A stretch of 64,000 bases of DNA, from assembly GCA_018694115.1 (NCBI GenBank), contig JABHNB010000007.1, positions 1,700 to 65,699 of the forward strand. Reading direction: 5' to 3'. How positions within the stretch are numbered: the stretch's first letter is position 1; each line of letters opens with the position of its first letter. Both the position numbers and the translations under genes were made by a program. Below are positions 14,696 through 18,277 of the stretch, one piece after another. The stretch comes from an archaeon. GTDB lineage: Archaea > Nanobdellota > Nanobdellia > Pacearchaeales > GW2011-AR1. The notes beneath the pieces are model-generated. The model saw only the letters and a list, made by a program, of their open reading frames with translations. It did not search any database and was not told where the DNA came from.

Positions 14696-15400
14696 TCAAA
14701 CCCTCAACCTCACGTCCTCAAAGTAATTATCCGCCACCTTCTTCAAGCCCTTCAAGTAATACTCAGAGATATCTCGTTCCCTTGTAAAACTCTCTTCAAT
14801 CATATCGCCATCACCTACCTTAAATCCCTGGAGAAAAAGCTTCTTGGGCTTTCCACCACAAACCTCCCCAATCCATTCACCCATTCTTTTGATCTCCACA
14901 CTATCATGGACTGGACCAATAATCGTTGTCCTAAATTCATAATTAGGCAATCCCGAAACAATCTTAATCGACTCTTCAATTTTCCCAATATCGACGGCAA
15001 CACCTGCAACACCAGAATAATTTTCTTTTGATGCCTTAATATCCATAGCGACATAATCCACCAATCCCAAATCGATAAGGTTCTTTAGTCGACCAGGAAA
15101 ACTACCATTAGTGTCAATCTTAATTTTATAGCCCATATCTTTGATCTTCCGAATAAAACTAATATCCAAACTCATCAAGGGTTCACCCCCAGAGATACAA
15201 ACAGCATCAAGTTTGCCTTTCCGCTTTTTCAAAAAATCCAAAACCTCTCCGACAGAAAACTCCCCCCCATCATCACGAATAACAAGACCCGGATTATAAC
15301 AAAATCCACAACGGAAGTTACATCCAAATAAAAAAACCGTACAAGCGACTTCGCCGGGATAATCAATCAAAGTCATCTTTTGTAAGCCGGAAATTTTCAT
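14696..15400 (-). CDS. nrdG: Anaerobic ribonucleotide reductase activating enzyme (radical SAM)
   Basis: MKISGLQKMTLIDYPG..GCNFRCGFCYN (CxxxCxxC), SGGEP, DTNGS. Start taken at MKISG (15400). Confidence 0.93.
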   Translation of the reverse strand: MKISGLQKMTLIDYPGEVACTVFLFGCNFRCGFCYNPGLVIRDDGGEFSVGEVLDFLKKRKGKLDAVCISGGEPLMSLDISFIRKIKDMGYKIKIDTNGSFPGRLKNLIDLGLVDYVAMDIKASKENYSGVAGVAVDIGKIEESIKIVSGLPNYEFRTTIIGPVHDSVEIKRMGEWIGEVCGGKPKKLFLQGFKVGDGDMIEESFTRERDISEYYLKGLKKVADNYFEDVRLRV

Positions 15401-15439
15401 ATTAAAAAAATAAAAATGGGGATTAAACCCCAATAAAAA

Positions 15440-15562
15440 CTAGCAATCTCCGGAAAACATTTTCCGATCCCCGAACTCTGCAAGCTTTCCTTCATTCCAT
15501 CGAGCAGTAGGCCTCAAATAGCCACAAACCCGACTCCACACCTCACATTTCGTTCTTCCCAT
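15440..15562 (-). CDS. Stand-alone 40-aa NrdD glycyl-radical peptide (not in the ORF track)
   Basis: MGRTKCEVWSRVCGYLRPTARWNEGKLAEFGDRKMFSGDC*; RVCGY is the class III RNR glycyl-radical motif; SD GGAGGTGA (plus strand 15571-15578) lies 8 nt before the ATG. Confidence 0.88.
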   Translation of the reverse strand: MGRTKCEVWSRVCGYLRPTARWNEGKLAEFGDRKMFSGDC

Positions 15563-17723
15563 TTTCAATATCACCTCCATCATTTAGTTGAGAATCTGAA
15601 ACCTTTGGGACACTTGAGGCAACTAGTAATCCTTCACCAACAACCTCTGGAACTCGACCACCCTCACCACCAAGAGAAATATCATCAGAAACAGAAACCG
15701 GAGAAGAGACGTGAGACTCAGCTTCCGCAATTTCTGCATCACACTTTGGACAGTACTCATGCTCTCCAGCCAGATATCCATGAACCGGACAAATTGAGAA
15801 AGTTGGAGTAATTGTAAAATAGGGCAAATGATAATTATTAGAGATTTTCCGAACCATTGTTTTAACGGCCTCCTTGTCTAGTTTCTCTCCAACAAAAGTA
15901 TGGAACACTGTTCCCCCCGTATATTTACATTGAAGTTCATCTTGTAAATCTAATGCCGCAAAAGCATCTGCAGTAAAATCAACAGGTAATTGCGTGGAAT
16001 TTGTATAGTAGGGTTTAGCTCCATTTTGATACGCGTCTTCATTCGCAACCAAAATTCTTCCAAATCTCTTTTTGTCCACCCTAGCGAACCGATAGGTTGT
16101 ACCTTCCCCAGGAGTAGCTTCTAAATTGTAAATATTTCCGGTTTCAGTCTGATATCCCTCAAGTTTCTCCCTCATAAAATCAAGAACCTTAACACTAAAT
16201 GCTTTTCCCTTAACTGTCGTAATATCTTCTCCGGGAATAAAATTACTGATAGACTCATTCATCCCAAGTAACCCAATCGTAGAAAAATGATTCTTCCAGT
16301 ATTTTTCAAATCTTTGGTGAACTTGTCTAAGATAAAACTTGGTGTACGGATAAAGTCCAACGTCCGTAAACTTTTCAATAGCCTTTCGCTTAATTTCTAA
16401 ACTTTCTTTTGCAAGCTCCATTAATCGGTCAAGCCTAGCAAAAAAATCATGCTCGGTTGTCGAAACAAAACCAAGTCTTGGCATATTGATTGTGACAACC
16501 CCAATTGAACCAGTCTGGGGATTAGAACCAAACAAACCCCCTCCCCGTTTCCTCAACATAGTATTATCTAAACGCAGCCTACAACACATGCTTCGAGCAT
16601 CTTCAGGCTTCATATCTGAATTAACAAAGTTCGAAAAATAAGGAATCCCATACTTGGCAGTCATTTCCCAAATTAAATCAAAGTCCGGATTATTCCAATC
16701 GAAATTCTTTGTTATATTATAGGTTGGAATTGGGAATGTAAAAACTCTTCCAGAAGCATCTCCTTCAAGCATACACTCTGCAAAAGCTTTATTTATCATC
16801 TTCATCTCTTCGGGGAAATCATTATAGGTCTCAGTCTGTGGTTGACCCCCCACAATAACATGTTCCTCCCGCATATAACTAGGAACTTCAAGATCCATGG
16901 TAACATTAGTAAATGGGGTTTGGAAACCGACTCGTGTAGGAACTGCCAAATTAAAAACAAATTCTTGCATCGTCTGTTTTACCTGTTTATAATCAAGATT
17001 ATCATACCTAATGAAAGGGGCCAGCAAGGTATCAAAATTAGAAAATGCCTGAGCACCAGCAGTCTCTCCTTGCAAAGTATAAAAGAAGTTAACAATCTGT
17101 CCTAGGGCAGTTCTAAGATGCTTAGCCGGCTTTGATTGAACCTTACCCTTAACCCCTGTAAAACCTACAGTCAACAGATCCTTCAAATCCCATCCAACAC
17201 AATAAGCTCCCAAAGTTCCAAGATCATGAACATGTAAATCTCCAGCTTCATGAACCTTACGAATAGCTTCGGGATAAATACGACGCATCCAATAATTAGT
17301 AATAATCTTCGTAGCAATATAATTGTTCAATCCCTGCAGCGAAAAACCCATATTCGAATTCTCTTTAACCATCCAATCATTAAGTCCGACATAATCTTCA
17401 ACAGCCTCAATAGTATCAAAAAGTCCCTTAACGCTTCTTAACTCATCATGAGTCTTACGGTACAGAATATATGCCTTAGCAACCTTTGCATGTCCTTCTT
17501 CAATTAAAATCTTCTCAACTAAATCCTGTACTTCTTCAACATCCGGAATCCCATGCTCCCCATGAATCTTATTCAAGGTCTCTAAAACAGAATTAGCCAA
17601 TGCCTCAGTTCTCTCACGATCTCTCCCACCTACGGCCCTCGCCGCATTCCAGATCGCATCAGCAATCTTATCTCTCTGGAAAAGCACAACGCTTCCATCT
17701 CTTTTTCTAACTTTTGTCACCAT
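15543..17723 (-). CDS. nrdD: Class III anaerobic ribonucleotide reductase, large polypeptide (ATP cone; no glycyl-radical loop)
   Basis: N-terminal ATP cone VRKRDGSV, GAYCVGW, RSMCCRLR finger loop, QCKYTGGTV, Zn site ICPVHGY..YCPKC; ends in an acidic low-complexity tail with no RxxGY. Confidence 0.95.
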   Translation of the reverse strand: MVTKVRKRDGSVVLFQRDKIADAIWNAARAVGGRDRERTEALANSVLETLNKIHGEHGIPDVEEVQDLVEKILIEEGHAKVAKAYILYRKTHDELRSVKGLFDTIEAVEDYVGLNDWMVKENSNMGFSLQGLNNYIATKIITNYWMRRIYPEAIRKVHEAGDLHVHDLGTLGAYCVGWDLKDLLTVGFTGVKGKVQSKPAKHLRTALGQIVNFFYTLQGETAGAQAFSNFDTLLAPFIRYDNLDYKQVKQTMQEFVFNLAVPTRVGFQTPFTNVTMDLEVPSYMREEHVIVGGQPQTETYNDFPEEMKMINKAFAECMLEGDASGRVFTFPIPTYNITKNFDWNNPDFDLIWEMTAKYGIPYFSNFVNSDMKPEDARSMCCRLRLDNTMLRKRGGGLFGSNPQTGSIGVVTINMPRLGFVSTTEHDFFARLDRLMELAKESLEIKRKAIEKFTDVGLYPYTKFYLRQVHQRFEKYWKNHFSTIGLLGMNESISNFIPGEDITTVKGKAFSVKVLDFMREKLEGYQTETGNIYNLEATPGEGTTYRFARVDKKRFGRILVANEDAYQNGAKPYYTNSTQLPVDFTADAFAALDLQDELQCKYTGGTVFHTFVGEKLDKEAVKTMVRKISNNYHLPYFTITPTFSICPVHGYLAGEHEYCPKCDAEIAEAESHVSSPVSVSDDISLGGEGGRVPEVVGEGLLVASSVPKVSDSQLNDGGDIENGKNEM

Positions 17724-17740: not shown

Positions 17741-18181
17741 TTATTTTAATTTTTTAAGTTCATCTCTGAACTCGTCAATATCCGCAAAGTCTCTGTAAAC
17801 TGCCGCAAATCGAATATACGCCACCTTGTCAACTTTTTTCAGCTTATCCATGACAATCTGACCAACCTTTGAACTTGGAATATCCTTATCTTTTGCAACC
17901 CGATAGACCCTTGCCGCAATGTCATCAACAATTTGATCGATCTGTTCACTTGTAAACGGCCTCTTTTCAAGATTTTTTGAAACCCCGATATATAACTTCT
18001 CACGATTAAACTTTTCCCGCCTACCATCTTTTTTAGTAAGATTCAAGTCAAGCTCAACTCGCTCATAAGTTGTAAACCGCTTACCACATTTCAAACACTC
18101 ACGCCTTCGCCGAGTAACTGCCTGACTATCTCTCTTATCTGTAACTTTAGTCTCCGCAGCATTGCAATATGGGCATAACAT
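17741..18181 (-). CDS. nrdR: Transcriptional repressor NrdR
   Basis: MLCPYC..RRRRECLKCGKRFTTYE Zn ribbon, ATP cone KKDGRREKFNREKL, DKVAYIRFAAVYRDF. Start at 18181. Confidence 0.95.
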   Translation of the reverse strand: MLCPYCNAAETKVTDKRDSQAVTRRRRECLKCGKRFTTYERVELDLNLTKKDGRREKFNREKLYIGVSKNLEKRPFTSEQIDQIVDDIAARVYRVAKDKDIPSSKVGQIVMDKLKKVDKVAYIRFAAVYRDFADIDEFRDELKKLK

Positions 18182-18203
18182 CTTTTTTGTAATTTTACAA
18201 TGA

Positions 18204-18251
18204 ATACAAGATATTGTATCTCGCACCCCTTTTTTCCACAATTGCTTGTGG
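18204..18251 (-). promoter_or_regulatory. Tandem NrdR boxes
   Basis: ATACAAGATATTGTAT (18204-18219; 13/16 match to acaCwAtATaTwGtgt) and CCACAATTGCTTGTGG (18236-18251; 11/16), 32 bp start to start. Confidence 0.8.
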
Positions 18252-18277
18252 TTGTAAGCTAACATAGAACTGTCGAC

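Follow-up and report, generated by a model that had tools for sequence, protein, structure and literature searches.

Gene organization of the nrdD locus

Class III ribonucleotide reductase (RNR) is a textbook glycyl radical enzyme with the radical loop on the catalytic chain. We analyzed a 64,000-nucleotide (nt) stretch of an archaeal genome (Nanobdellota; Pacearchaeales; contig JABHNB010000007.1, positions 1,700 to 65,699 of the forward strand; assembly GCA_018694115.1, here G000), referred to as the window, in which nrdR, nrdD, a 40-residue open reading frame (ORF), and nrdG for such an enzyme form a cluster (Table 1). A first-pass annotation of the DNA had reported that nrdD ends without an RxxGY motif and that the loop is carried by the small overlapping ORF in front of nrdG, and the ORFs, motifs, and profiles agreed with this in every detail. 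The sequence of nrdD contains GAYCVGW, SMCCR, and CPVHGYLAGEHEYCPKC and its product terminates in NGKNEM; the peptide ORF lies in the +1 frame relative to nrdD and bears RVCGY. The TGA codon of nrdD falls 17 nt within the peptide ORF, which results in a 20-nt overlap, and the Shine-Dalgarno (SD) sequence GGAGGTGA stands 8 nt from the peptide ATG. Since an upstream ATG at 15583 is not conserved, the 40-residue form is likely the product of the peptide gene. The ORF listed for nrdG begins at TTG 15433, but homologues beginning with MKI.GLQK suggest a start at ATG 15400, 39 nt 3' of the peptide gene; the putative hairpin GGGGTTTAATCCCC may lower read-through into nrdG.

Profile searches located the division within the protein family. 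Pfam NRDD (PF13597) matched the large chain over profile positions 1–529 of 562 (E = 5e-180, 600 bits) and the peptide ORF over positions 531–562 (E = 5.6e-10), demonstrating a clean cut between the Zn ribbon and the Gly loop. The large chain scored 1036.6 bits with NCBIfam NF006126 (cut-off 548), with its barrel over the curated cut-off, and its closest relatives in PDB were NrdDs. Among 46 NrdDs, S378-M379-C380-C381-R382 was invariant, as were C645, H648, and C658 of the Zn ribbon, and C661 was at least 90% conserved. Thus, the finger-loop Cys motif and the Zn ribbon ahead of the C-terminus are in place, and the cognate radical S-adenosylmethionine (SAM) activase NrdG is encoded nearby, but the RVxGY loop that follows the Zn ribbon on the same polypeptide in class III NrdDs (PF13597, TIGR02487, and NF006126) is here on a separate +1-frame ORF. 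No family dedicated to the free peptide was found in Pfam or NCBIfam. The cluster is headed by a bacterial-type NrdR, and relatives of the organism are labelled Nanoarchaeota or DPANN archaea.

Table 1. Features of the nrdR–nrdD–peptide–nrdG cluster (positions in the window; aa, amino acid residues)
Feature	Position	Strand	Description
nrdR	17741..18265	minus	Zn ribbon and ATP cone repressor, first cluster gene; TIGR00244 163.6 bits (cut-off 124.65), PF22811, PF03477
nrdD large chain	15543..17723	minus	726 aa: ATP cone, catalytic barrel, Zn ribbon, acidic tail; without glycyl-radical loop
ATP-cone domain of nrdD	17442..17714	minus	aa 4–94; PF03477, E = 4e-22
SMCCR, finger (thiyl-radical) loop motif of nrdD	16578..16592	minus	aa 378–382; from sequence
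Zn ribbon CPVH-x9-CPKC of nrdD	15741..15791	minus	aa 645–661; four canonical ligands all on large chain
Acidic, Ser-rich C-terminal tail of nrdD	15546..15740	minus	65 aa; predicted disordered; hypervariable among relatives
Shine-Dalgarno GGAGGTGA of peptide gene	15571..15578	minus	within nrdD tail codons
Glycyl-radical peptide gene	15440..15562	minus	40 aa and stop, MGRTKCEVWSRVCGYLRPTARWNEGKLAEFGDRKMFSGDC; radical Gly14 codon 15521–15523
Hairpin GGGGTTTAATCCCC then T-run, terminator-like (putative)	15407..15432	minus	between peptide gene and nrdG
nrdG, radical-SAM activase	14696..15400	minus	TIGR02495 NrdG2 191 bits (cut-off 131), PF04055

Conservation of the two-gene layout and of the peptide

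We searched 40 related genomes for NrdD and read the loci in all frames. The two-gene layout was common to 17 loci of the window's clade, and the NrdD core of the window was 75–82% identical to those of genus relatives and free of stops. Relative to nrdD, the peptide lay in the +1 frame in 12 of these loci, in the +2 frame in four, and in frame 0 in one, where it follows in the same frame past a TAA codon. The nrdD stop was found at −20 to +68 nt from the peptide ATG irrespective of the length of the nrdD tail. The peptide itself was highly conserved in the clade, with the consensus M-[GA]-RTKCEVWSRV[VC]GYLRPT.RWN.GKL.EF.DR.

An SD-like core (GGAGGTGA, AGAGGTGA, or AAGGAGGT) was present in every one of the 17 loci, 7–12 nt 5' of the conserved ATG in most and a few nucleotides farther in two. 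The occurrence of GGAGGTGA in the 64-kb window was not above chance (2 found versus 1.8 expected), and we regard it as an SD sequence because it is conserved in relatives. Within the operon, the peptide gene is the only one with an SD; nrdD and nrdG have none. The conservation of both SD and ATG indicates separate initiation of the peptide. Examination of the junction RNA for a structure that could sequester the SD or stimulate recoding yielded no unusual fold (z = −0.12), and a 16S 3' end for an anti-SD check was not found in the assembly by a simple pattern.

The ratio of nonsynonymous to synonymous differences (pN/pS) of the peptide was 0.195 in its own frame, compared with 1.29 and 1.56 in the other two (32 conserved codons, 136 pairs), and by this measure the peptide is under purifying selection.

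RNR content of the genus

Next, we compared the RNR content of genus genomes. The catalytic domain of class I/II RNRs (PF02867), searched for in 31 genus genomes, was not found in G000. Among the 25 genomes covered by both the nrdD and the PF02867 searches, split nrdD occurred without a class I/II RNR in 14, G000 included, and a class I/II enzyme occurred without nrdD in five; two genomes had both types (one interrupted by stops, the other a weak match) and two had neither, both of them incomplete. Split nrdD and class I/II RNR were therefore mostly mutually exclusive within the genus. G000 has a single copy of the peptide gene, and neither a second copy nor any other glycyl-radical motif or glycyl radical enzyme was found in this assembly. 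The split enzyme thus appears to be the only RNR of the assembly, which is 82.7% complete and in which no other was found, and the peptide gene is probably needed.

The acidic tail of the large chain

The 65-residue tail after CPKC contains 22% Asp/Glu and has a net charge of −11. The tails of 14 relatives ranged from 22 to 102 residues with net charges of −5 to −13, and were hypervariable to the extent that they could not be aligned between genomes. An AlphaFold2 model of the large chain, built with the 46 aligned NrdDs, had a mean predicted local distance difference test score (pLDDT) of 80.3 and a predicted template modeling score of 0.74; the core was confident, and tail residues 673–726, at pLDDT 28–45, were predicted to be disordered. 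The first-pass annotation had called the tail dispensable, a description that would suit its predicted disorder but is not supported: at the split loci the tail is never missing, is acidic in every case, and remains an open frame as far as the start of the peptide. The finger loop around SMCCR was modeled with less confidence, consistent with the absence of a partner. The peptide, by comparison, carries positive charge (+2 to +4) in its N-terminal half, opposite to that of the tail (−5 to −13); it is speculative, on these charges, that the tail may help to capture the peptide.

Distribution and phylogeny of split loci

A search with the peptide as the query returned 81 clusters of homologues of 37–64 residues from NCBI, JGI, ENA, and Logan. 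Those with names were annotated as 'anaerobic ribonucleoside-triphosphate reductase' or 'hypothetical protein' and came from Nanoarchaeota, Pacearchaeota, and unclassified archaea. Additionally, we scanned an alignment of 25 peptides against one genome per prokaryotic species. Split loci were also present in Micrarchaeota, Iainarchaeota, Patescibacteria, Bipolaricaulota, Thermotogota, and Chloroflexota. The recurrence anticipated in the first-pass annotation was thus found, the split standing beside RxxGY-less nrdD genes in DPANN and in some candidate phyla radiation (CPR) genomes.

To survey the window's phylum, an even sample of 400 high-quality genomes was searched for the radical motif (E ≤ 1e-5) in stop-to-stop frames, with frames of <150 residues counted as short. 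The motif was detected in 86 of the 400 genomes; 41 of them had it in a short open frame, and the remaining 45 in a full-length NrdD. We inspected 38 places with short frames, 34 of which consisted of a loop-less nrdD core followed by the small ORF, with a radical-SAM activase next in 32 of the 34; the other four comprised two lone small ORFs, one place unresolved by the script, and one with a partial ORF listing. Extra lone Gly-loop ORFs also occurred in some genomes of the phylum: G120 (L125, L126) has a second 39-residue peptide gene away from nrdD, and G253 (L128) has two tandem Gly-loop ORFs of 83 and 103 residues besides fused NrdDs.

In a quick maximum-likelihood analysis of 80 NrdD cores, trimmed after the Zn ribbon, the window fell within a DPANN clade with 100% support that comprised 23 split loci and one fused locus. 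Over the whole tree, at least five changes between the split and fused states were required.

Two positions of the cut

Comparison of the 34 loci with fused relatives, in which the Zn ribbon joins the loop as C-x2-H-x9-C-x2-C-x3-C-E-V-Y-S-R, revealed two split types. In the type of the window (16/34 loci), the cut follows C-x2-C, and therefore all four C/H/C/C ligands, the motif through which NrdD of Thermotoga maritima binds Zn (PMC4493059), are on the large chain. In the second type (18/34 loci), noted at L113–L119, L126, and L138–L148 of the window's phylum, the large chain has C..H..C alone and the peptide begins, in most loci, with M-x-C-x3-[C/T]-E-V, placing the equivalent of the fourth ligand on the peptide. 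A large chain with C..H..C together with a Cys-bearing peptide suggests that the Zn site of the second type would be shared between both chains. From the two cut positions, we infer at least two independent splitting events.

We also considered whether the invariant Cys6 of the peptide is required for the Zn site at the window locus. Such a requirement, still conceivable, was rejected, as the large chain already holds the C/H/C/C set of T. maritima NrdD.

Two further kinds of nrdD variation were noted. In Bipolaricaulota and Thermotogota (L045:3279-3635, L061:3279-3650, L078, and L081:3378-3626), the Gly loop is read in a different frame, which shares 80–190 nt with the end of nrdD; the loop is preceded by a conserved Y[RK]ED..GNL.LEDGTVIP segment, and there is no ATG, only GTG or TTG candidates, a configuration compatible with a split gene or with recoding. 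In several relatives, nrdD carries in-frame, intein-sized insertions of approximately 300 residues or more (G012:C10:20353-23376, G018:C21:459-4841, G009:C45, and L032), one of them at the position of window residues 268–270, with open frames of 1056–1461 residues.

A two-chain class III RNR as the best explanation

These observations are best explained by a naturally split, obligate two-chain class III RNR, the radical subunit of which is translationally coupled to the catalytic chain; we put the probability of this reading at roughly 80%. How the two-chain enzyme would be assembled, activated, and kept active we infer from sequence as follows. Chain 1 (726 residues) would supply the ATP cone, the barrel with its Cys finger loop, the full C/H/C/C Zn ribbon, and the disordered acidic tail, and chain 2 (40 residues) would supply the Gly-radical loop and the C-terminal segment, which in one-chain enzymes directly follow the Zn ribbon. 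The peptide would be translated from its own SD and from an ATG lying in the last codons of nrdD. Because the nrdD stop is always close to the peptide ATG, ribosomes ending nrdD would re-initiate at, or pass to, the peptide SD and ATG, such that those finishing chain 1 are delivered to the start of chain 2. NrdG and SAM would then take a hydrogen atom from Gly14 of the peptide to give the radical, and the peptide would be seated non-covalently in the barrel at the place of the fused loop, where the radical could be exchanged with the finger-loop Cys. Because the large chain is loop-less, the peptide gene is single, and no other RNR was found, the peptide would be a regular, obligate radical subunit and neither a spare nor an accessory.

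Structural work on one-chain enzymes is compatible with this arrangement. The peptide aligns to residues 696–737 of NrdD from Prevotella copri, the stretch with Gly711 and the C-terminal segment. The glycyl radical domain (GRD) of that enzyme is described as highly mobile and at times wholly disordered (PMC11226230), and in one-chain NrdD the GRD is thought to exit the barrel to reach the activase (PMC4493059). By analogy, a loop that swings out anyway is a plausible candidate for a separate chain.

Several points weigh against this reading. A 40-residue peptide tethered neither covalently nor through Zn would have to bind tightly enough to bury a radical, for which NrdD offers no precedent. 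L036, a member of the window's clade, is fused, which means that a one-chain form also works in this lineage. With an assembly completeness of 82.7%, failure to find another RNR in G000 alone is no proof. Moreover, deoxynucleoside salvage is possible in principle for DPANN archaea.

Alternative explanations

The first-pass annotation had suggested an exchangeable glycyl-radical part, a reading that we consider unlikely. In its DPANN form, a free 40-residue carrier would be made in excess from the sole strong ribosome-binding site of the operon, activated off the enzyme by NrdG, docked reversibly, possibly with the acidic tail as a guide, in the loop-less barrel, and replaced after O2 cleavage at the Gly, sparing the 80-kDa catalyst. 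The strong SD, unique to the peptide gene within the operon, and the terminator-like hairpin after this gene would fit such overproduction, and a precedent exists in GrcA and pyruvate formate-lyase (PFL) (PMC13450708). Stand-alone NrdD-type GRD proteins of 74–110 residues also form 883 clusters and, in the four CPR loci checked, lie beside an intact fused nrdD, resembling a true spare. However, a spare in the sense of GrcA presupposes an enzyme with a loop to be replaced, and here the large chain is loop-less, one peptide gene is present, and the search of the assembly gave no second RNR; the overlap of stop and start suggests synthesis at approximately 1:1, and the sequence is silent on exchange. 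If exchange did occur, the sister lineages in which the Zn site is apparently divided between the chains would have the same device in a tethered form.

It is very improbable that nrdD has lost its function and is decaying in a symbiont supplied with imported deoxynucleotides. DPANN genomes are reduced, and no RNR was found in two incomplete genomes of the genus. Nevertheless, the nrdD core is free of stops at 75–82% identity to genus relatives, its catalytic residues are invariant, the peptide is under purifying selection, nrdG and nrdR are kept, and nrdD and class I/II RNR substitute for each other within the genus.

We give equally little credence to a programmed ribosomal frameshift or bypass that yields one fused NrdD. 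The 20-nt frame overlap of the window does lie in an A-rich stretch (GAAAATGGG), but the offsets of 0, +1, and +2 among relatives mean that no single indel or frameshift mechanism suffices: some loci would need a +1 shift, others a +2 shift or translation through an in-frame stop codon, and at some loci the two frames are separated by gaps of 44–197 nt. With a programmed frameshift, relatives would be expected to keep one frame relation and to share a slippery or stimulatory element; instead, no slippery site was conserved, the junction RNA was unremarkable, and the conserved elements were the SD and ATG. The first-pass judgment that the split is no frameshift artefact and that the peptide has its own SD and ATG was thus upheld by the 17 loci. 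Least credible is an assembly or sequencing indel in this metagenome-assembled genome: one base fewer in, for example, the A4 run at 15563–15566 would join the frames, but independent metagenome-assembled genomes of many projects share the split with differing offsets and tails, the 81 peptide clusters come from four data sources (NCBI, JGI, ENA, and Logan), and the fused product would hold a 60-residue insert that is not in fused relatives.

Comparison with known systems and other free-standing Gly-loop proteins

The proposed two-chain enzyme shares with the one-chain NrdD/NrdG systems of phage T4 (PDB ID: 1H78 and 1H79), T. maritima (PDB ID: 4COI and 4U3E), and P. copri (PDB ID: 8P23) the ATP cone, barrel, finger-loop Cys, Zn ribbon, RVxGY motif, and adjacent nrdG. 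What sets it apart is a break in the polypeptide after the Zn ribbon and ahead of the Gly loop, an added disordered acidic tail of 22–102 residues on the large chain, and an SD and ATG dedicated to the Gly loop.

The peptide, encoded by a 40-residue, RVCGY-bearing ORF that has a separate SD and ATG, resembles GrcA/YfiD (Escherichia coli; Y06I of phage T4) as a small free protein with a glycyl-radical loop; like GrcA, it would act in trans with a large barrel and is presumably a substrate of the cognate radical-SAM activase. Unlike the peptide, which is of NrdD type, GrcA has 127 residues, is of PFL type, and lies outside the NRDD profile; conversely, the peptide matched PF13597 alone and not Pfam Gly_radical (PF01228), the family of the PFL C-terminus. 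GrcA coexists with a loop-bearing PFL and acts only after damage, whereas the only NrdD found in the window's genome is loop-less. A parallel in gene layout is the split class II RNR NrdJa/NrdJb of Pseudomonas aeruginosa (Crona et al., 2015, as cited in PMC9669993), in which the RNR catalytic chain is spread over two adjacent genes with the C-terminal module on the second. In contrast to the RNR of the window, however, NrdJa/NrdJb is B12-dependent, and NrdJb is a folded domain with a reducing Cys pair and not a radical site.

In a 2026 review of glycyl radical enzymes, spare-part proteins or trans-acting radical carriers are given as known for formate lyases only (PMC13450708), and the RNR family analyses searched mention split enzymes for class II only (PMC9669993). 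A split class III RNR or NrdD was described nowhere in the literature that we searched, which lay outside subscription journals. Annotation pipelines already predict the genes of such split RNRs and give them names, and the layout is not unique to the window.

Free-standing NrdD-type Gly-loop proteins of other kinds were encountered in two groups. In CPR genomes (Minisyncoccales/Paceibacterota; L059:3637-3912, L097:3650-3931, and L102:3613-3927), a protein of 92–94 residues with a full Zn ribbon (CHDCG...KCNECF) and an NrdD Gly loop is encoded in the interval separating nrdG from an intact, fused nrdD. Neither Pfam nor NCBIfam has a family for it, and its homologues form the 883 clusters of 74–110 residues, cultivated Minisyncoccus archaeiphilus among them; this protein looks like a true NrdD-type spare part. 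In Desulfobacterales and other Thermodesulfobacteriota (L086:3255-3608, L099, L037:3261-3611, L040, L049, L051, L090, L101, and L106), free NrdD Gly-loop proteins of approximately 117 residues follow the pattern M..MT[IV].RLHEL...CHDC...KC..C...EVYSRVVGYLRP, and nrdD was not alongside in any of the four loci with ORFs listed (L037, L040, L086, and L099).

Implications

The split has a consequence for annotation, as the large chain clears equivalog cut-offs without a radical site and a 40-residue gene can readily escape notice; errors in either direction can therefore enter reconstructions of the metabolism of DPANN and CPR organisms. A 40-residue peptide would also provide a minimal substrate for studying recognition by NrdG and the protection of the radical. 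More broadly, a widespread natural two-chain NrdD would mean that the glycyl-radical loop can work in trans for ribonucleotide reduction, and it makes testable whether detaching the fragile part of the enzyme cuts the cost of oxygen damage.

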